Origin: Parcubacteria group bacterium GW2011_GWA2_40_143
GTDB lineage: Bacteria > Patescibacteriota > Minisyncoccia > UBA9983
Reading direction: 5' to 3'
NCBI GenBank assembly: GCA_000996035.1
Contig: LBYH01000002.1
Coordinates: 8,979 to 72,978 of the forward strand
Length of the DNA stretch: 64,000 nucleotides
The position numbers and the translations under genes are program-made. Positions 5,340 to 55,782 of this stretch are shown here, piece after piece (the first letter of the stretch is position 1; the number at the start of each line of letters is the position of its first letter). The notes under the pieces are model-generated. The model was not told where the DNA came from. It saw nothing but the letters and a program-made list of their open reading frames with translations, and ran no database searches.

Positions 5340-5966
5340 TTAACTTCCATCCCAACCTTCAAGCTCTCCGGCCGGACTTTCATCATATGTATTATAACTT
5401 CCATCCTCATTTAGAATCTTTCCAGCTGAACCTTCATCGCGATCAATAATAACTTCATTTTTACCATCACCGCTATCGCTTCCACTAGTACTGCTACTAT
5501 CACCAGTACCGCTGCTGCTGGTGCTACTACTGTCGCTGCTATCACTACTACTCGTAACTTCATAATTTTCAAGAGTGTCAATGAATTTAAAGCTTACCAA
5601 TTGAGGGTTTATGGTATAAAGAAGAAGAAACGACGCAAAAGCCAAAAGCAACCCCCAAAGCGCGTTATTGATACGTTCTTTTGCTTTGGTCATTTGACTC
5701 TCGTTGCCACCGCTTGCCATATAGATAATACCGCCAACGGTTATCATCAGCACTGCCAAAAAACCTGCCATAGCCAAAGCAAATTTAAAAATCCAGCCCA
5801 AATATTCTGACAATGTTACATCGTCGCCATCACCGGCGGAAGGGAGTGACTCAAGCAGTGTATATTTCGGTTGAGAAGGCCCAACAAAATCATCATCCGC
5901 GGCCATGGCAAAAAACGGCATTAAACATAAACTTATTAAAATTGTGATAAATATTTTTTTAAACAT
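5340..5966 (-). CDS. Candidate VirB2/TrbC-like pilin with a Ser/Asp-rich C-terminal tail
   Basis: 208 aa; signal peptide 'MFKKIFITILISLCLMPFFAMAAD', then two hydrophobic helices separated by a short polar loop ('WIFKFALAMAGFLAVLMITVGGIIY...NNALWGLLLAFASFLLLY'), then a poly-Ser/Asp tail. Topology matches conjugative pilins. Confidence 0.35.
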   Translation of the reverse strand: MFKKIFITILISLCLMPFFAMAADDDFVGPSQPKYTLLESLPSAGDGDDVTLSEYLGWIFKFALAMAGFLAVLMITVGGIIYMASGGNESQMTKAKERINNALWGLLLAFASFLLLYTINPQLVSFKFIDTLENYEVTSSSDSSDSSSTSSSGTGDSSSTSGSDSGDGKNEVIIDRDEGSAGKILNEDGSYNTYDESPAGELEGWDGS

Positions 5967-6965
5967 TTAAAAATTGATTCTCAGAGAGCTGTTAGCGCTT
6001 TGAGAAATACTCCCGATATCGCCAGATATCAACGCTTTAACATCGGCAAGGCCGGAATCGTCAGCCGCCTTAAAATTAATAATATTACTATTTTCATTCT
6101 GTTGATTTATCTTTTTCCCATTTACCATCCATTTGTAAGTTAAGGCGGGCGGGCTTGATTTAATAAAGTTAAACGCCTCCGCGATCATGGACATATCCCT
6201 TGATGACATATTAAACGTTCTACCCAAAGCTTTTCCAAACAAAATGCCTTTCGTCGGACTATTTTCATAAATAACGGCTTTTGGCTTTACGCCTTGAGAG
6301 GATATTTCTATTGTTTTTTTGTATTTAACGCTTCTGTTTTTATTAGAAACTTCCACGCCAATACTGTATTCTCCATCATCATTCAAACGCACAATAATGC
6401 CTCGCTCGTTAAAGCCGGAAGCTTTTGGAATTTTTTTGTTGTTAACATACCAATCGTAAATAAGCGATGATGGCGACAGTTCAACCCCGCCGGAAAAGAC
6501 ATGAGGAATCGCGTAGAATCTGACGTATGATTTCTTTGCCGGCAAAGCTCTACCTTTATACCAATCCGGCGCGTCCGTGCCGGCTTCCCACAAAAGATCA
6601 ATATCGTCGCCGGAAAAATTCACGGTTTTTGAGACCTCCATTCCCTTGTCTGTAACAATACTCACAACCAAAGAATTGTTTGAGCCGAAATTTGGCGTTA
6701 CAAAATTTATTTTTCTTTTTCCAATGCCATCAGCCACTTTCTTGCCTCCCAGCACCCATGTGATAACGCTTCGGTCCACATCAAACTGATAACTCACAAC
6801 CTCGGCCAAAACTTGAGTCCCCGGCGCCGGATTATTCGGCGTAATTTCAATACTAAAGTCAGAATTAAAAGCATCCGTCTCTATGGCGTAAACTTGAGGA
6901 CTGAAAAGTGACACTAAAATCATCATTGCCAAGAAAATAATCTTATATGAAAAATCTTTCATCAT
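5967..6965 (-). CDS. Secreted hypothetical protein (T4SS-cluster component)
   Basis: 332 aa; cleavable signal peptide 'IIFLAMMILVSLFSPQVYA'; tightly packed between the pilin-like gene and the VirB4 operon. Confidence 0.4.
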   Translation of the reverse strand: MMKDFSYKIIFLAMMILVSLFSPQVYAIETDAFNSDFSIEITPNNPAPGTQVLAEVVSYQFDVDRSVITWVLGGKKVADGIGKRKINFVTPNFGSNNSLVVSIVTDKGMEVSKTVNFSGDDIDLLWEAGTDAPDWYKGRALPAKKSYVRFYAIPHVFSGGVELSPSSLIYDWYVNNKKIPKASGFNERGIIVRLNDDGEYSIGVEVSNKNRSVKYKKTIEISSQGVKPKAVIYENSPTKGILFGKALGRTFNMSSRDMSMIAEAFNFIKSSPPALTYKWMVNGKKINQQNENSNIINFKAADDSGLADVKALISGDIGSISQSANSSLRINF

Positions 6966-30759: not shown

Positions 30760-30830
30760 TGCGGGATGGGAGAATCGAACTCCCGACCTCGGTTTGGAAA
30801 ACCGATATTATACCATTTAACTAATCCCGC
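30760..30830 (-). tRNA. tRNA-Gly (anticodon UCC), no encoded CCA
   Basis: Cloverleaf read by hand: acceptor GCGGGAT/ATCCCGC, anticodon stem TCGGT/ACCGA, loop TTTCCAA, T-arm GGGAG-TTCGATT-CTCCC. Confidence 0.8.
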
Positions 30831-30900
30831 TTATTTTACAATCCAAATATTATATCTTGAATTTTAAAGCAAAAATTAAATAAAAACAACCACGCAAAAG

Positions 30901-30936
30901 AAAAACCCCTTAATAATTTATATAAGGGGGTTTTCT
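30901..30936 (-). terminator. Bidirectional intrinsic terminator (AAAAACCCC...GGGGGTTTT)
   Basis: G/C stem flanked by A5 and T4-5, immediately downstream of the small Cys-rich ORF on the minus strand. Confidence 0.5.
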
Positions 30937-30949
30937 TAATTAGTCTTGT

Positions 30950-31096
30950 TTAGTTGCAACCGCCGCAAACTCCACAAGCGTCATCTTGGCTACTACTAGC
31001 AGGCTCTTCGCCTGTGGCAGCTCCTTCAGAAGAAGCTTCTCCTCCTTCTGTTGTTTCTGCTCCGGTAGCTTCTGTGTTTATGTTTTGATCTTCCAT
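30950..31096 (-). CDS. Small acidic peptide with a C-terminal Cys motif (MEDQNINTEATGAETTEGGEASSEGAATGEEPASSSQDDACGVCGGCN)
   Basis: 48 codons, has its own terminator, absent from the ORF track (<60 aa). No strong Shine-Dalgarno sequence. Confidence 0.3.
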   Translation of the reverse strand: MEDQNINTEATGAETTEGGEASSEGAATGEEPASSSQDDACGVCGGCN

Positions 31097-31237
31097 TTTA
31101 TTGTTTTTAGCCTTATAAATCCGAATCCTGCCAAAGCAGGATGAGATAATTTAAAGCCGTTTAAATTAAAGCTTTCAATGACGACCTTTTCTACCTTAGT
31201 ATTTATATTATATTCATAAAGACAAAAATGTCAAGGT

Positions 31238-31308
31238 TCGGGCTGCTGGGAATTGAACCCAGTCTACCTGCTCCCAAAGCAGGCGTACTACCGGTATACG
31301 ACAGCCCG
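31238..31308 (-). tRNA. tRNA-Pro (anticodon UGG), no encoded CCA
   Basis: Acceptor CGGGCTG/CAGCCCG (C1-G72, typical of bacterial tRNA-Pro), anticodon stem CCTGC/GCAGG, loop TTTGGGA, T-arm CTGGG-TTCAATT-CCCAG. Confidence 0.75.
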
Positions 31309-31390
31309 CTACAATTTGGCATAATGCCAATAACACAATATCTACTCTACTATATTTAAGACATAATAACCAGCGCATCGTGTTTACTCA

Positions 31391-31765
31391 TCAAAAAACA
31401 TTCTCTGTTATTCTAAATTTAACCTTTCTTTCTTTAAGATTGGCAAAAACAGCGATTACATCTATTTGCCACTCTGTTTCATGTGCAACATTATTTTCCA
31501 TCAGATATGTCTCTATCGCTCGATGTAATCTTTTAATTTTCCAAGGATGAACGTTTTCTTCCGGCATGTAACCATTCTCTTGAGTTTCATATGAAACAGT
31601 TTTAACTTCCACAAAATGAATTGTTTTGTCTTTTTTAGCCACAATATCTATTTCGCCCCATTTTTTACGATAATTAAGGCTTAAAATATTAAACTTTTGT
31701 TTCATAAGAAACTTTTTAGCCATTTTTTCTCCCATGGCTCCGAGCTTTTGTTTTTCGGTTTGCAT
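31391..31765 (-). CDS. yraN: YraN/UPF0102-family endonuclease
   Basis: 124 aa; 'GAMGEKMAKKFL...GEIDIVAKKDKTIHFVEVKTVS'. Confidence 0.8.
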   Translation of the reverse strand: MQTEKQKLGAMGEKMAKKFLMKQKFNILSLNYRKKWGEIDIVAKKDKTIHFVEVKTVSYETQENGYMPEENVHPWKIKRLHRAIETYLMENNVAHETEWQIDVIAVFANLKERKVKFRITENVF

Positions 31766-32121
31766 AGTAATTTTAAACTATTTCTTAAGTAAAAAGTTGC
31801 ACGTGCAACTTTTTATGCTCTTATTTTACCTTTTATCCGATTGTTTCACTGCGTGTGAAACAATCGGATAAAAGGTTGTCATATGAAGAATATCTTTAAT
31901 TAAAAATTTAAATAAAGGCTCTAAATAAGGTTGTTTTTTCTTTTTTTATATTATAAAAGACGAACTATTAGATATTTTATGGTCACTTATTGGACACTCT
32001 ACAAACATCTAATGTACATAACCTGTGGATAGTGTGGATAACTTCTTTATTTTAAGCCTTTTCTAAAAGACGTTATTTCTAACAGACATACATATTTAAA
32101 GGACAAACTCGCTTCATTCGT

Positions 32122-32195
32122 GTGTCCTCGGAGGGACTCGAACCCCCAACAACAGGTTCGAAGCCTGTCATGATATCCATTTCACCACGAGGACA
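32122..32195 (-). tRNA. tRNA-Arg (anticodon UCG), no encoded CCA
   Basis: Acceptor GTCCTCG/CGAGGAC, anticodon stem ACAGG/CCTGT, loop CTTCGAA, T-arm GGGGG-TTCGAGT-CCCTC. End positions are +/-1 nt. Confidence 0.65.
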
Positions 32196-35772: not shown

Positions 35773-36864
35773 TTATTTCCTACCTTTTCCATGGAAATTT
35801 TTATGCACATCGCGGAGTTGTTTGTCGGTGATGTGGGTGTAAATCTGGGTGGTGGAGATGCTGGAGTGGCCAAGCATGGTTTGCACCGCACGGATGTCGG
35901 CGCCATTGCCCAGCAGATCCGTGGCAAAGCAATGACGGATAACGTGCGGGGTAACCTTCTTGGAAATACCGGCTTTAATGGCATAACCTTTGATAATCCT
36001 TTCCACCGATCGGGGGGTAAGACGGGAAGAAGGAGTAAGAAAGTTAGTCCCCGTAGGATTTCCCTTATTGTCCGTCCTTAAGGGGAAAACTTTCTTACTC
36101 CTGAATACCTCGCCGGATTTGGAAAGCTGGTTTCCTTGAGAACGGTCATGACGGGAAATTCTCCGGAAACCAGCTTTCCCGAATCTGGCTGACACAAACA
36201 GCGCGTCTTCCGTATCTGTTCTTTTATCTAAATAATTTTTAACCGCTTCCTTAGCACTATCCGACAAGAAAACAACCCTTATCTTGCCACCCTTACCTCT
36301 TATGGAAAATTCACCGGTTTTGGTTTCTTCCAATGTTTCTCTATTTAGAGAGCAAAGTTCGGACACGCGCAAGCCGGTAGAGAAAAGCAGCTCAAGGATG
36401 GCCTTATCGCGCAAACTTCTTAAGTGATTATCGCTTCGGATGGAGGGAGAAAAAGATGCCTCCGTAGAATTTCCCGTCTTAAGCGGCGCGTCCAACAAGC
36501 GCGCCAGTTCTTCCGGCGTTATCAGATCCAAATCGCGCTCCGGCACCTTGGCCAACTCAATCCGCTCAGGCGCGAGCGATTCAATGCCACGTCTGGCCAT
36601 ATATTTAAGAAAGACTCGCAAGGCGATAAGATGATAATTTTGTGTCTTTCTGCTTATCTGTTCGCCGCCCGCTGTTTGAGAACGGTTTAAACGCATTCTG
36701 AATTTACGCACAATGTCGTCTGTAATTTGAGAAGGGGAATTTATCTTTGAGAATTCTAAAAACTTTTTAAGATACCTGTCATAATTTTCAATAGTCTTAA
36801 CGCTTCGCCCTTTTTCCACTTCCAGATATTCTAAAAATTCTCTATGTAGATTATTGATGTTCAT
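35773..36864 (-). CDS. xerD: Tyrosine recombinase XerC/XerD-like with an ~50-aa insertion before the catalytic C-terminus
   Basis: N-terminal 'LEYLEVEKGRSVKTIENYDRYLKKFLEF'; C-terminal 'HVIRHCFATDLLGNGADIRAVQTMLGHSSISTTQIYTH' (R...H..R...Y). Confidence 0.8.
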   Translation of the reverse strand: MNINNLHREFLEYLEVEKGRSVKTIENYDRYLKKFLEFSKINSPSQITDDIVRKFRMRLNRSQTAGGEQISRKTQNYHLIALRVFLKYMARRGIESLAPERIELAKVPERDLDLITPEELARLLDAPLKTGNSTEASFSPSIRSDNHLRSLRDKAILELLFSTGLRVSELCSLNRETLEETKTGEFSIRGKGGKIRVVFLSDSAKEAVKNYLDKRTDTEDALFVSARFGKAGFRRISRHDRSQGNQLSKSGEVFRSKKVFPLRTDNKGNPTGTNFLTPSSRLTPRSVERIIKGYAIKAGISKKVTPHVIRHCFATDLLGNGADIRAVQTMLGHSSISTTQIYTHITDKQLRDVHKNFHGKGRK

Positions 36865-37090
36865 AAATACAATTATTATATCACCTTGAATTACGAAATA
36901 GTATTAAAAGAAGAATATTATATCATATCCAACATAAGGAAAAGGAAAATTCATTTCTCCCTCCCAGCCATAACTGGAAAGTCGTCCGAAATAAACTTCC
37001 CTTTTCCTTATGTAATTATTTCAACACGTCAGAAAATTATGAGTGCTGAGCAAATGATATTATTTCGTAATTCAAAGAACATCACAAAAG

Positions 37091-37149: not shown

Positions 37150-37422
37150 CTATCTTACCGCGTCTTTGAGGTGCTTGCTCGGTTTAAACTTTGGCACCTT
37201 CATGGCCGGCACATTTACCATTTCTCCGGTTCTCGGATTTCTGGCTTGCCTGGCGGCTCTCTGCTTGGCTGTAAAAATGCCAAGTCCGGCGATTGATACA
37301 TCGTCTCCTTTTTTGAGAGTGTTTGTTATTGTCTCTATAACCTTTTCCATGGCTTGTTCGCAAGCCGCTTTTGTGCCTCCAACTGATTCGTGGATTATTT
37401 CCACTAGTCCAGCTTTGTTCAT
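37150..37422 (-). CDS. hup: DNA-binding protein HU
   Basis: 90 aa; 'GLGIFTAKQRAARQARNPRTGEMVNVPAMKVPKFKPSK'. Confidence 0.9.
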   Translation of the reverse strand: MNKAGLVEIIHESVGGTKAACEQAMEKVIETITNTLKKGDDVSIAGLGIFTAKQRAARQARNPRTGEMVNVPAMKVPKFKPSKHLKDAVR

Positions 37423-51755: not shown

Positions 51756-52229
51756 CTAATTCAAGCTTCTGGTGGGGCAGGCGATAGCCGCCGCGATGGC
51801 GTCTATTTCATCATCTATTTTTTGGGAAATATCTATTTTTAAAATAGCGGCAACCATTTTTTGCACCTGGAATTTTTCCGCTTTGCCGTATCCGGTCAAG
51901 GCCATTTTAATTTCCAAGGGAGTAAGTTCCACGACTCTTAGGCCGTATTTTGCCGCCACATACAAAGCTGTTCCGCGAGCCTCGGAAACTTTTATGGCTG
52001 TTTTTTGGTTTGTGGTAAAAAATAATTTTTCAATAGCCATTACATCCGGTTTGTGCTTTAGTGCGGCGTTCTCTATACTTTTGCCTATTTGAAGCAATCT
52101 TTTTTCATGAGAGTCTTTTCTGTTTGTTTTAACGCACTCGGAACAAAGGAGAGTTTCTTTGCCGTTGTTTTTTTCTAAAACAGCCAAGCCCATTCTATCG
52201 TAACCGGGGTCTATGCCGAGAATTATCAT
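51756..52229 (-). CDS. ruvC: Holliday junction resolvase RuvC
   Basis: 157 aa; 'IILGIDPGYDRMGLAVL', 'AIEKLFF', 'EIDAIAAAIA'. Confidence 0.9.
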   Translation of the reverse strand: MIILGIDPGYDRMGLAVLEKNNGKETLLCSECVKTNRKDSHEKRLLQIGKSIENAALKHKPDVMAIEKLFFTTNQKTAIKVSEARGTALYVAAKYGLRVVELTPLEIKMALTGYGKAEKFQVQKMVAAILKIDISQKIDDEIDAIAAAIACPTRSLN

Positions 52230-52232
52230 TAT

Positions 52233-52766
52233 TTATTTTGCGTTGGTAAAAACTTCCTGCGTATCATCATGCTCTTCCAGCGCCTCTGTGAGCGCGGATA
52301 AGAGTTCTTTGTCTTGTTCGCTTATCTCCACTTCCGTTACCGGTTTTGGTTTGCCGTCTGTAAAATTGAACGCCCAAAGCACGGATCCTTGCTGTGCGAA
52401 TTTGCCGCCATTTTGAGAGAGTAGGTGTTTGATTTCTGAAACCGTTCTGTTTGTATTGTCTGTAATAGAGTCTATTATAATCGCCGCGCCACCATGACCA
52501 TAAGCTTCATAGCGAACACTTTCCAACGCCGCGCCGCCAAGCTTACCGCTGCCTTTATCTATTGCTCTTTGGATGTTGTCCATGGGCATGTTCTCAGCCT
52601 TGGCTTTATCCACTACAGTTCTCAGGTCTGGATTCATACTTAAATCAGCCCCTTTTCTCGCCGCCAAAGATATTAGCTTTGAATATTTTGAGAAAACTTT
52701 GCTTTTTTTAATGTCGTTTACTCCTTTTTGACGCTTAATCTGCGCCCATTTGCTATGTCCTGCCAT
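52233..52766 (-). CDS. yebC: YebC/PmpR-family transcriptional regulator (short form; start at 'MAGHSKWAQIKRQK')
   Basis: 'AGHSKWAQIKRQKG' hallmark. The track ORF has a 15-aa hydrophobic N-terminal extension, probably untranslated. Confidence 0.85.
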   Translation of the reverse strand: MAGHSKWAQIKRQKGVNDIKKSKVFSKYSKLISLAARKGADLSMNPDLRTVVDKAKAENMPMDNIQRAIDKGSGKLGGAALESVRYEAYGHGGAAIIIDSITDNTNRTVSEIKHLLSQNGGKFAQQGSVLWAFNFTDGKPKPVTEVEISEQDKELLSALTEALEEHDDTQEVFTNAK

Positions 52767-52830
52767 AGAGATAGAATATATAATTAAAAGAACAGAATCA
52801 AGGATACTCACGAAGACTTGTTTTTTGTAA

Positions 52831-53850
52831 CTACAACAAACCCTCTTGTTTCGGCTTTTTGCCTAAGTGTTCGTATGCGCGAGGAGTGGCCACACGGCCG
52901 CGAGGCGTGCGGTCTATGAAGCCGAGTTGAAGAAGGTAAGGCTCATATACTTCTTCTATGGTAGCCTCTTCTTCCGAGGACGCGGCCGCGAGAGTCTGAA
53001 CGCCTACCGGCCCGCCGCCGAATTTTTCTATAAGTATCTCAAGCATGCGTCTGTCGTGAGGGTTAAGGCCCACGCTGTCTATTTCCATCATGCTTAAGGC
53101 TTGCTCAACTGAGTTAAGATCAAGTTCTTTTTGACCGTGCACTTGAGCGAAGTCTCTACATCTTTTCAAAAAATGATTGGCTATTCTGGGGGTGAAGCGG
53201 CTTCTTTTGGCAATCTCAGTGGCGGCATCGCTCGCGATATTCATACCCAGAATATTGGCCGAACGTATAATAATGTTTTTTGTTTCCTCGGGAGTGTAGA
53301 ATTCAAGGCGAAAGGTACCGCCGGAAAAGCGAGATCGGAGAGGGGAAGAGAGTAAAGCTATTCTTGTCGTGGCGGATATGAGTGTAAAAGGAGGCAACTC
53401 AAGTTGGATGCTGCGCGCCGACGGACCTTTGCCGATTATAATATCCAAAACGCGCGACTCCATGGCCGGGTATAAAACTTCTTCAATATTTTTGTTTAAG
53501 CGATGAATCTCGTCTATAAAAAGAATATCACCCGGAGAAAGATTGGTGAGAATGGAAGCTAAGTCACCCACTTTGTCTATCGCTGGGCCGGAAGTGATTT
53601 TTATTTGCGCGCCAAGCTCCTTGGCGATAAGATGAGCGAGTGTTGTTTTGCCCAAACCGGGTGGTCCATAGAAAAGAAGATGTTCTATCGGCTCTTTTCT
53701 CTCAGAAGCGGCTTGGATAAGTATCCGAAGATTCTTTTTTATGTGCTCTTGGCCGATATATTCCGCCCATTTTTGCGGGCGTAGAGCTTGGTCAAGCGAT
53801 TTGTCGGCGAATTGGCCGCTTTTAGGCGCGGCTTTATCAGGGCTTGACAT
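52831..53850 (-). CDS. ruvB: Holliday junction branch-migration helicase RuvB
   Basis: 339 aa; 'HLLFYGPPGLGKTTLAHLIAKELG', 'ILFIDEIHRL', sensor and winged-helix C-terminus. Confidence 0.9.
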   Translation of the reverse strand: MSSPDKAAPKSGQFADKSLDQALRPQKWAEYIGQEHIKKNLRILIQAASERKEPIEHLLFYGPPGLGKTTLAHLIAKELGAQIKITSGPAIDKVGDLASILTNLSPGDILFIDEIHRLNKNIEEVLYPAMESRVLDIIIGKGPSARSIQLELPPFTLISATTRIALLSSPLRSRFSGGTFRLEFYTPEETKNIIIRSANILGMNIASDAATEIAKRSRFTPRIANHFLKRCRDFAQVHGQKELDLNSVEQALSMMEIDSVGLNPHDRRMLEILIEKFGGGPVGVQTLAAASSEEEATIEEVYEPYLLQLGFIDRTPRGRVATPRAYEHLGKKPKQEGLL

Positions 53851-53920
53851 TTTGATATTTATTTGCTATATTATTAACGAAATATAATTTTTTAATAATT
53901 TTCCCGATTAGTTTGATTTT

Positions 53921-54093
53921 AATCGGTCGCGTAATTCTCTAAGCAACATCCCGCTTTTGCGGGATATCGGAGTTCTTTCTAAGGACGTTCTGGTGTCTCG
54001 CTTTTGTGATATTCCTGGGGCTATCCTCGGAATGTTCTCTAAACTTTTGGTACCCATATTAAAAGAGTTGCTTAGAGAATTACGCGGCCGATT
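53921..54093. repeat. 173-bp element bounded by 27-bp inverted repeats (26/27 match), candidate MITE or structured ncRNA
   Basis: AATCGGTCGCGTAATTCTCTAAGCAAC at 53921-47 and its reverse complement at 54067-93; 119-bp core containing the ATCCCGC-TTTT-GCGGGAT hairpin. Confidence 0.4.
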
Positions 54094-54108
54094 TTATTTT
54101 TAAAGTTT

Positions 54109-55782
54109 TCAAATACTTACCACTCTTTCCAATTCTTCAAGCGACGTGATTCCCGAAAGCACTTTCATTATACCATCTTGACTCATATTGAGAATATCTT
54201 GCTCCTTGGCTCCTTCCAATATGGCGGTTTCGCTCGGACTGCTTAAAATTAATTTTTCTATTTTGTCGTCTATTAGTATGGCTTCATAAATACCGATTCT
54301 TCCTTTATAACCTATGCCATTGCATTTGTTGCAGCCGGTTGGTTTCCATATCATAATTTTTTCTTTGGCCGGCTTTTCTCTGTTTGATGGAAGGGAGTTT
54401 AAAACTTTCTCTATCTTCGTAATTTCTTCTTCATTTGGCGCGTGTTTCGTTTTGCAGTCATTGCACAATTTTCTTACGAGTCTTTGAGCCATGGCTATAT
54501 TTATAGCCGGCGCTATGATATTGGGATTTACTCCAAGATCTATAAGGCGGGGGATGGTGCCGGCGGCGTGATTGGTGTGGAGGGTGGAAAGCACCATGTG
54601 GCCAGTGAGAGCGGCATTTAGAGCGGTATCGGCCGTTTCAAAGTCTCTGATCTCACCCACCATTATTATGTCTGGGTCTTGTCTTAAAATAGATCTGAGT
54701 CCATCCGCGAAATCATAACCTGCCGATTTTTTAATCTGAGTCTGCACGATGCCTTTAAGGTGATATTCAATCGGATCTTCCAGTGTAACAATCTTTGAGC
54801 TGGAATTTTTTACTTTGCTCAAGAAAGCGTAGAGCGTGGTGGTTTTTCCGCTGCCGGTCGGGCCGGTAGTGAGAATCATGCCGTTTGGCTTTCCCAATTC
54901 TTTCGTCACTATTTGCTGGAGTTTTTCTTCCATGCCAAGCTGGCTGAAGTCCACGGCGATTGATTCCGGATTCAAAATTCTTAGCACGATAGATTCGCCG
55001 TAAGCTTCGGGGATGACAGAGGCGCGCACCTCCACATCGGTATTGCGAGTTTTGATACTGAATCTTCCGTCTTGCGGACTATCTTTGATGTTGAGCTTGA
55101 GGCCGGAGATAAGTTTGACGCGAGATAAAAGAAGGTTGTAAATTTTATATTCAATCTCATAAATATCATGCAATACGCCATCCAACCTGAAACGCAATCT
55201 TACCTTTTCTTCTTGTGGCTCAAGATGTATGTCGGACGCGTCAAAACTAATTGCTCCAGCCAATATTATTTCCAATATTTCAGAGATTTTTCTGTTATTT
55301 GATGAAGCGTCCGCGATGGAAGCAAAAAGCCCCTGAAGCTCTTCTATAGCATTTGTTTCTTGGATGAATTTTTCCAGTTTGTCTTGAGAAACTTCTATTA
55401 TGCCAGCGGTAGTCTCCATATACTCCGGCACTTCTTTGTATAATTTCCACGCCCGCTTTAAACTTTCTTCCGACACGATGTACAGACTTAACGCGTAACC
55501 TTGTTTTCCTAAATTTTCTATGATGAACTTTGTTTTTTCCGGATTAGGGCTTTCTATGGCTACTTGCAGCTTTTTGCCAGTCTTTTGGAAAACGACGAGC
55601 TTGCCTTCAAGAGCATCTTTTTCAGGCACTATTTTAATGGCATCTATTTCCACGGTCATTCTGGAAAGATCAAGATAGGGAAGAGAGTATCTTTGAGAAA
55701 GAATCATTGCGAGATCTTCCGCTTCTTTTTTTCTGATCCCGTCCACTTGCTCTTCTCTTTCTTTGTCTTTAAAAAATACCAT
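54109..55782 (-). CDS. pilB: Type II/IV secretion ATPase GspE/PilB family (type IV pilus assembly ATPase)
   Basis: 557 aa; 'ILTTGPTGSGKTTTLYAFL', 'IMVGEIRD', tetracysteine 'CNDCK...GCNKCNGIGYKGRIGIYE'. Confidence 0.85.
   Translation of the reverse strand: MVFFKDKEREEQVDGIRKKEAEDLAMILSQRYSLPYLDLSRMTVEIDAIKIVPEKDALEGKLVVFQKTGKKLQVAIESPNPEKTKFIIENLGKQGYALSLYIVSEESLKRAWKLYKEVPEYMETTAGIIEVSQDKLEKFIQETNAIEELQGLFASIADASSNNRKISEILEIILAGAISFDASDIHLEPQEEKVRLRFRLDGVLHDIYEIEYKIYNLLLSRVKLISGLKLNIKDSPQDGRFSIKTRNTDVEVRASVIPEAYGESIVLRILNPESIAVDFSQLGMEEKLQQIVTKELGKPNGMILTTGPTGSGKTTTLYAFLSKVKNSSSKIVTLEDPIEYHLKGIVQTQIKKSAGYDFADGLRSILRQDPDIIMVGEIRDFETADTALNAALTGHMVLSTLHTNHAAGTIPRLIDLGVNPNIIAPAINIAMAQRLVRKLCNDCKTKHAPNEEEITKIEKVLNSLPSNREKPAKEKIMIWKPTGCNKCNGIGYKGRIGIYEAILIDDKIEKLILSSPSETAILEGAKEQDILNMSQDGIMKVLSGITSLEELERVVSI

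Follow-up and report, generated by a model that had tools for sequence, protein, structure and literature searches.

The DNA examined here, 64,000 nucleotides of contig LBYH01000002.1 from Parcubacteria group bacterium GW2011_GWA2_40_143 (assembly GCA_000996035.1) and called the window throughout, carries a 173-nt element with long inverted-repeat ends in the space between ruvB and a gene for a PilB-type T2SSE ATPase (Table 1). An initial annotation had described ends of 27 bp matching at 26 positions, a core holding the hairpin ATCCCGC-TTTT-GCGGGAT, and a small hairpin, CCGATTA/TAATCGG, preceding the left end. The description of the ends proved exact: a repeat search returned two arms of 27 nt, 26/27 complementary (96%) with 119 nt between them, and the sole non-Watson-Crick position, T53927 against G54087, is a U-G wobble when the + strand is read. 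Both hairpins are in the sequence as well, the inner one at 53949-53965 (8 bp counting A53948) and the upstream one pairing 53905-53911 with 53920-53926, where it overlaps the first bases of the left arm. Two readings had been attached to this architecture, a miniature inverted-repeat transposable element (MITE) or a long-stem non-coding RNA (ncRNA). The second is strongly supported and the first fails, since the element is single-copy, fixed at orthologous sites and has arms that co-vary. The element encodes a structured small RNA, read from the + strand of the window, and sequence signals point to its transcription. Beyond what had been annotated, this + strand RNA is antisense to ruvB and pilB alike, folds into a four-way junction and has a predicted promoter and terminator of its own.

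Table 1. Positions of the RNA gene, its predicted signals and its neighbours in the window
Feature	Positions	Strand	Remarks
P1 5' strand (left arm)	53921-53947	+	Inner half AAUUCUCUAAGCAAC, the family motif AAUCUCUAAGCAAUC, near-invariant
P2 hairpin	53948-53965	+	AUCCCGC-UUUU-GCGGGAU plus A53948-U65
P3, long irregular arm	53969-54037	+	Covariation; variable tip 53995-54013
J3/4 linker	54038-54043	+	UCUAAA in the window, UUAC in most relatives; holds conserved unpaired U54040
P4 hairpin	54044-54065	+	CUUUUGGU-ACCCAU-AUUAAAAG
P1 3' strand (right arm)	54067-54093	+	Repeat search, covariation
Putative -35 hexamer TTGACA	53844-53849	+	Reverse complement of the ruvB start ATG TCA A; ATG at 53848-53850 (-)
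Putative extended -10 TGcTATATT	53864-53872	+	Transcription start predicted at ~53879-53880 from spacing
Predicted 5' leader, ~40 nt	53880-53920	+	Contains the CCGATTA/TAATCGG hairpin, which competes with the base of P1
U-run UUAUUUUU	54094-54101	+	Directly 3' of P1; resembles an intrinsic terminator, + strand only
ruvB	52831-53850	-	Divergent from the RNA gene, invariably adjacent; Pfam RuvB_N, AAA_lid_4, RuvB_C
yebC	52233-52811		After ruvB; Pfam TACO1/YebC
ruvC	51756-52229		After yebC; Pfam RuvC
PilB-type T2SSE ATPase gene	54109-55782	-	Pfam T2SSE; convergent with the RNA; usual, non-obligatory 3'-side neighbour

Conservation of the element beside ruvB

The RuvB protein of the window is encoded on contig LBZQ01000009 of GCA_000994445.1, where the stretch is identical to the window. 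The closest RuvB loci from a species-representative genome collection were 69-76% identical, all from metagenome-assembled genomes, and were labelled Paceibacterota, Nomurabacteria, Zambryskibacteria, Wolfebacteria or Patescibacteria. When 80 RuvB loci were searched by nhmmer with the window sequence, the element was found just upstream of ruvB and on the opposite strand in 41. A covariance model, R1, was built from 39 sequences (alignment A1), and a second, R2, carries the full structure. With these models exactly one copy was recovered in 79 of 82 sources, the window included, at 80-175 bits (E 1e-17 to 1e-39). The remaining three lack the sequence in which a full match could lie: L013 has a partial match at a contig end, L015 stops where P1 begins and L032 stops 22 nt upstream. 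All 79 homologues lie on the strand opposite to ruvB, with one copy per 20-kb locus, and the weaker reverse-strand matches at the same coordinates reflect the palindromic nature of P1. Five more loci, reached through RuvB homologues (91%, 83%, 76% and 75% identical; one labelled Terrybacteria), also have the element. The RNA family is thus present once per locus, in the same place and orientation, in every Parcubacteria/Paceibacteria relative with enough sequence upstream of ruvB, over a RuvB similarity range of 69-99% identity.

Measured from the ruvB start as called by open reading frame (ORF) scan, the model match begins at a distance of 7-382 nt with its 5' edge, mostly 55-160 nt; in L052, where the distance is 7 nt, promoter-like sequence replaces the outer part of P1. 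One protein labelled Kuenenbacteria (P0107) groups among the same relatives, on a contig too short to judge the element. A short contig with the same label (L083:1-178) encodes a RuvB 97% identical to that of L089, which has the RNA, and the two upstream regions differ (L089:2775-2961): L083 shows a consensus promoter at the ruvB start, then sequence loosely like the P1 5' strand, then the contig end.

This distribution bears directly on whether the element is a MITE. MITEs are likewise short elements bounded by long inverted repeats, and the near-perfect 27-bp ends, small size and intergenic position would all suit one. The arm 27-mer, however, occurs at only two sites in the 64-kb window (two matches arose in 0 of 100 shuffles), so that the element is single-copy there, as it is in each 20-kb locus of the 79 relatives. 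The initial annotation had proposed to look for further copies and target-site duplications; the flanks, TTTT and TTAT, show no convincing duplication. The 20-nt core of the arm had no exact match in 185,579 species genomes; its sole metagenome match, L002, is the orthologous pilB-element-ruvB site of a near-identical strain. A gapped consensus pattern had no match in 2.9 million viral contigs, and blastn gave none in plasmid or phage collections. Instead, every relative with enough sequence has the element at the orthologous site, down to ~70% RuvB identity. The outer halves of its arms diverge between lineages without losing complementarity, and G-U pairs fall on one strand only. The covariation of the arms is that of an RNA helix, not the sequence conservation expected of ends bound by a transposase. 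Unlike a MITE, then, the element is unrepeated, immobile, orthologously fixed and under selection for RNA structure, and we give the transposon reading next to no credence.

Neither Rfam 15 nor the literature searched contains the family. At gathering threshold the whole window yielded three tRNAs only. A covariance-model scan of 401 nt at the element, as proposed in the initial annotation, gave no Rfam 15 family with the cut-off relaxed to E <= 10; in 12 homologous loci none was found at gathering threshold, nor any meaningful match in six of them at E <= 10. These non-matches include the 6S, SRP, Y RNA, 5S, ribozyme and riboswitch families; low-threshold matches to miRNA, CRISPR-DR13 and NCRUPAR models were dismissed as chance. 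Full-text literature searches on ncRNAs of the candidate phyla radiation (CPR) or Patescibacteria, on their 6S RNA and on ruvB-linked RNA motifs turned up nothing relevant. The P1 3' strand GUUUAGAGAUUUAUG resembles a Cas9 repeat, GUUUUAGAGCUAUG; this likeness was rejected as coincidental, there being no cas genes, another pairing pattern and a fixed place beside ruvB. Nor does a reverse-transcriptase gene adjoin the element, as would be expected of a retron ncRNA; its neighbours are pilB, ruvB, yebC and ruvC.

Fold and strand of the RNA

RNAalifold, manual inspection and the second covariance model agree on a four-way junction of helices P1-P4. From the start to the end of P1 the RNA measures 145-169 nt (median 156) in the family and 173 nt in the window, and the linkers of the junction are 0-6 nt long. 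In an alignment of 79 sequences (A4), 91.4% of cells are in standard pairs, compared with 41-51% when the partners are slid by 1-3 columns. Compensatory changes were seen at 46 of 58 pairs, and 0 of 500 shuffles reached the observed value on any of five measures. In a mutual-information scan with APC correction, the top 17 column pairs are all pairs of the model, and the highest-ranking one sits in P4. The same scan gave no pseudoknot or tertiary pairs, only the nested helices, one extra P1 pair and pairs in the P3 tip.

P1, the closing helix, has 25-27 bp, of which the outer half varies freely while staying complementary and the inner half is nearly invariant, with AAUCUCUAAGCAAUC pairing to GAUUGUUUAGAGAUU. 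In P1, 97% of cells are paired and 20 of 26 pairs show compensatory changes. The stem of P2 differs by clade (AGCC/GGUU, GGC/GCU, AGGC/GCCU, and AUCCGC/GCGGAU in L087), and its three modelled pairs all co-vary, as do all eight of P4. P3 is the most elaborate arm. At its base, P3a (~53969-53975 with 54030-54037, a register read manually in the window) has compensatory changes at 7 of 7 pairs, and P3b-c at 8 of 14. An invariant AGGA (53982-53985) pairs with UCCU (54024-54027), followed by a conserved C53986 opposite A54023 and by U54022, which is bulged, as a pyrimidine is in the family. The next pair, G53987-C54021, co-varies between G-C and A-U (pair 76-114, GC in 68 and AU in 9), and an invariant UGG (53991-53993) pairs with CUG (54015-54017) as U-G, G-U and G-C. 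All positions conserved at 90% or more are base-paired but three (C75, A116 and U136, alignment columns). Conserved nucleotides are concentrated in inner P1, P3b and P3c, not in loops or junctions.

A small protein gene within the RNA was considered and rejected, as the ORFs in the window and in L043 are unconserved and loop-length differences are not multiples of three. One such ORF of 23 codons, MFSKLLVPILKELLRELRGRFYF (54032-54103, +), is absent in most family members and was judged to be chance.

The wobble pairs identify the strand. The modelled pairs together comprise 3493 Watson-Crick, 690 G-U and 80 A-C cells; G-U wobbles would be mismatches on the ruvB strand, and the RNA is therefore read from the window's + strand. 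Alignment pair 29-169, for example, is G-U in 64, G-C in 11 and A-U in 4 of the 79 sequences. Strain L002 differs from the window in P1 by two substitutions, U-G to C-G and G-C to G-U, which are tolerated on the + strand only. Folding energies are also better on the + strand, by 23 kcal/mol (-90.6 kcal/mol, z = -10.8, against -67.4 kcal/mol, z = -7.8).

With the RNA on the + strand, the element cannot primarily be a ruvB leader, a riboswitch or a pilB terminator. The initial annotation had held that a single-copy element with no transcript might just be a complex terminator. The place of the element after the stop of pilB and before the start of ruvB, genes that both lie on the - strand, together with the strong hairpin of P1, would suit a terminator (of pilB, or bidirectional) or a cis-acting ruvB leader or riboswitch on the - strand. 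The rule of the initial annotation fails here, as the element, although present once, is deeply conserved and shows covariation. On the - strand P1 is followed by AAAAUCAAAC and not by a U-run, which occurs on the + strand only, and most wobbles become A-C mismatches (690 G-U against 80 A-C cells). The RNA keeps to ruvB where pilB is replaced, three more co-varying helices that carry invariant motifs would be superfluous in a terminator, and a riboswitch would be expected to have a pocket of many conserved unpaired positions instead of three. We regard such an explanation as highly improbable.

At the DNA level, paired inverted operators or a cruciform upstream of ruvB would account for the near-invariant inner halves of the arms and for their closeness to the ruvB promoter region. 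The arms nevertheless differ systematically at one position (AAGCAAU against AAACAAU; G-U in 64/79, G-C in 11, A-U in 4), an RNA signature not expected of two copies of one operator. Covariation is also seen in P2-P4, which lie between the arms, and in a cruciform both strands would have to pair. A DNA element is thus hardly credible.

Predicted promoter and terminator, and neighbouring genes

The RNA gene would form an independent transcription unit, starting at a near-consensus sigma-70-type promoter and ending at P1 and the U-run. A consensus scan of the window's + strand gave TTGACA-17-TATATT, 11/12 to consensus with a TG extension, and the same arrangement recurs in the family. RNA-strand promoters scoring at least 12/13 were present at 47% of loci, compared with 0.1% of 1457 control windows, and the in-frame ATGTCAA that places the -35 hexamer in the ruvB start was found at 56 of 79 loci. 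From the end of the -10 box to P1 the distance is 13-57 nt in most loci and 70-100 nt in some, from which a variable 5' leader is predicted; among relatives this leader would span ~6-100 nt, and its sequence is unconserved across clades. Nearly all 79 homologues have, directly 3' of P1, a U-run that pairs partly (A-U, G-U) with the purine-rich 5' strand. P1 and the U-run would double as the intrinsic terminator of the RNA on the + strand.

In a few loci the leader carries a GC-rich hairpin with a U-run of its own (L087:780-850 on the - strand; also L006, L081, L050, L045 and L011/L017). In L087 it reads GGCGCGCC-GAAG-GCGCG plus UUUUGUUUUU, in a leader of ~125 nt compared with ~48 nt in the window. 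The hairpin resembles a terminator; it may act as an attenuator or protect the 5' end, or it may be an insertion. As a general feature of the family it was rejected, a strict scan having found it in only 7 of 79 loci.

A second promoter signal faces the first. A perfect extended -10, TGnTATAAT, lies on the ruvB strand of the spacer in 51% of loci versus 0.1% of controls, and in 24 loci it is only 8-11 nt from P1. At the standard spacing of the majority clade, the start sites would face each other with ~10 nt of overlap, and both promoters could probably not hold RNA polymerase at once. Alternatively, the RNA gene might serve mainly to regulate ruvB in cis. Its strong promoter, and possibly the transcript itself, would act on ruvB through promoter competition, interference with transcription or antisense pairing to the 5' untranslated region of ruvB, and the fold would mainly stabilise and terminate the RNA. 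The strongly enriched face-to-face promoters, the -35 hexamer embedded in the ruvB start codon, and the complete linkage to ruvB while the other neighbour varies all fit such a role. So does a promoter-like sequence in the window at 54194-54167 (-), inside the 3' end of pilB (TTCTCA-16-TG-TATAAT, 10/12 plus TG), from which a transcript would cross the whole RNA gene in antisense and continue into ruvB, giving a ruvB mRNA antisense to the entire RNA; this site is unconserved elsewhere. Set against this, promoters on the ruvB strand beyond the RNA gene, which would give full-length antisense mRNA, showed no enrichment over background, so that none is conserved there, and the predicted start sites of the majority clade give a transcript overlap of just ~10 nt. 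The invariant helical motifs and the co-varying P2, P3 and P4 also exceed the needs of an interference device or terminator. We consider it unlikely that cis-regulation is the main role.

Linkage of the RNA is to ruvB, as the RNA stays there while the other neighbour varies: in ~15 loci other genes replace pilB. On the + strand, no gene follows the RNA. Since ruvA usually precedes ruvB, we asked whether the RNA gene stands in for it; this was rejected, as a bona fide ruvA lies ~8 kb from ruvB in L045 (1677-2243; phmmer E = 8e-31; Pfam RuvA_N, HHH_5, RuvA_C). The classical ruvAB operon is split in these genomes, and the RNA gene takes the position upstream of ruvB. In L088, an ENA contig, a TrmB-like gene takes the place of yebC after ruvB, and the pilB-type gene (1100-2647; 398 + 98 aa) and ruvC (5932-6437; 78 + 88 aa) are each called as two fragments, which may be frameshifts, pseudogenes or assembly errors.

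Candidate functions of the RNA

Our favoured explanation, a structured RNA gene that would form its own transcription unit and may encode a protein-binding scaffold, is as a whole probably right. For the function we tentatively propose a stable, abundant, trans-acting RNA that would serve as such a scaffold. In riboswitches and ribozymes conservation is concentrated in junctions and loops; helix-centred conservation, a conserved mid-helix G-U pair, a tandem wobble and a small asymmetric internal loop, as found here, are typical of RNAs that proteins recognise. A scaffold is favoured because of the helix-centred conservation, single copy, consensus promoter and duplexed ends of this RNA. Promoter competition and the short 5' overlap may in addition couple the RNA and ruvB promoters, which would explain why the two genes are never separated; that this secondary effect matters is possible and, in our view, somewhat unlikely.

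Several points weigh against a scaffold with its own transcription unit. The transcript, its ends and its abundance are deduced from sequence, and any protein partner is hypothetical. Conservation centred on helices could partly reflect alternative pairing or processing. The window's own clade lacks the extended -10 facing ruvB, so that promoter competition is not universal, and the terminator-like hairpin between promoter and P1 in a few loci (L087, L006, L081 and others) complicates the path from promoter to P1.

Among known RNAs, 6S RNA (ssrS; RF00013 and relatives) is alike in being single-copy, ~150-200 nt and strongly promoted, in having an end-paired closing helix with a second long stem opposite, and in not being tied in cis to a downstream gene. 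If the RNA were a divergent 6S-type RNA binding RNA polymerase holoenzyme, P1 would be its closing stem, P3 its internal stem and the P2 and P4 regions the two strands of the central bubble. Consistent with this are its length (145-169 nt), its occurrence as a single copy, the consensus promoter and the long closing helix in which the 5' end pairs with the 3' end; the Rfam scan found no 6S RNA in the window (which covers only 64 kb), and 6S RNAs of some lineages have small hairpins in their bubble strands. 6S RNA, however, has an open central bubble, whereas the RNA described here is a tight four-way junction with linkers of 0-6 nt, no large single-stranded bubble and two co-varying hairpins, P2 and P4, in the corresponding regions. 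Its sequence-invariant, perfect helix is unlike the bulged closing stems of 6S RNAs, and the Rfam 6S models matched neither the 401 nt scanned at the element, with E-values up to 10 allowed, nor six homologous loci. A 6S-type identity therefore appears very unlikely.

An RNA with a four-way junction beside ruvB could also be tied to Holliday-junction processing, as an abundant decoy or scaffold for a junction-recognising protein (RuvA, RuvC or a Xer-type recombinase), or by gating RuvB production in these reduced genomes. If true, this would explain why the RNA is never separated from ruvB-yebC-ruvC; we treat it as a speculative idea with a small chance of being right. In a weaker form of the idea, the RNA would stand in, within Paceibacteria, for a housekeeping RNA that is unrecognised in that class.

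Other systems share parts of this organisation. The Ro60-binding Y RNA and YrlA have an end-paired terminal helix that is the most conserved part, a multi-helix module at the other end and helix-centred conservation of the kind seen in protein-binding platforms. The RNA described here differs from them in having no Rfam Y RNA match, no T-loop- or D-loop-like motifs and a link to ruvB, and no rsr (Ro) gene was found in the neighbourhoods examined. Orphan ncRNA classes such as the raiA motif, OLE and HEARO-type RNAs are similarly lineage-restricted, covariation-supported and multi-stem, with function unknown; here, by contrast, conserved nucleotides are nearly all paired, no pseudoknot was detected and synteny with one housekeeping gene is strict, by way of overlapping putative promoters. 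In OxyS/oxyR, GcvB/gcvA and SgrS/sgrR, a small RNA (sRNA) lies head-to-head with a protein gene across a compact shared control region and the linkage is conserved, and the RNA and ruvB form a comparable divergent pair. Unlike in those systems, the partner is a DNA-repair motor rather than a transcription factor, and the predicted promoters face each other with the -35 hexamer in the partner's start codon. The RNA is also much more structured than typical base-pairing sRNAs.

Other structures were seen elsewhere in the window. A second long-stem, multi-branched structure lies at 36873-37087 (-), flanked by genes for HU (37150-37422) and for a Xer-type tyrosine recombinase (35773-36864). It has a closing stem of ~20 bp and three hairpins, and TGATATAAT lies just downstream. 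It folds at -81.4 kcal/mol (z = -10.4) on the - strand versus -52.8 kcal/mol on the + strand, and had no meaningful match in Rfam and none to model R2. Possibly, a further uncharacterised structured RNA lies here beside a recombination gene. Long imperfect inverted repeats lie within the recombinase ORF itself, at 36031-36102 (28 nt, 79%) and 36143-36485 (25 nt, 84%). At 31828-31876, within a cluster of three tRNA genes (30760-32194), a hairpin pairs perfectly over 22 bp around a loop of 5 nt (ACCTTTTATCCGATTGTTTCAC / GTGAAACAATCGGATAAAAGGT).

Patescibacteria/CPR make up a very large share of bacterial diversity; most of them are uncultivated, their genomes are tiny, and descriptions of their ncRNAs are very few. 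With the 79-sequence alignment and the covariance model, this family could be annotated directly and its transcript sought in metatranscriptomes. The interleaving of the RNA gene with the start codon and promoter of ruvB is an unusual gene arrangement. As a single-copy gene with a putative consensus promoter, retained at one locus across many families, and with an elaborate, co-varying fold and invariant helical motifs, this RNA is a good candidate for an important ribonucleoprotein or regulator in these bacteria.

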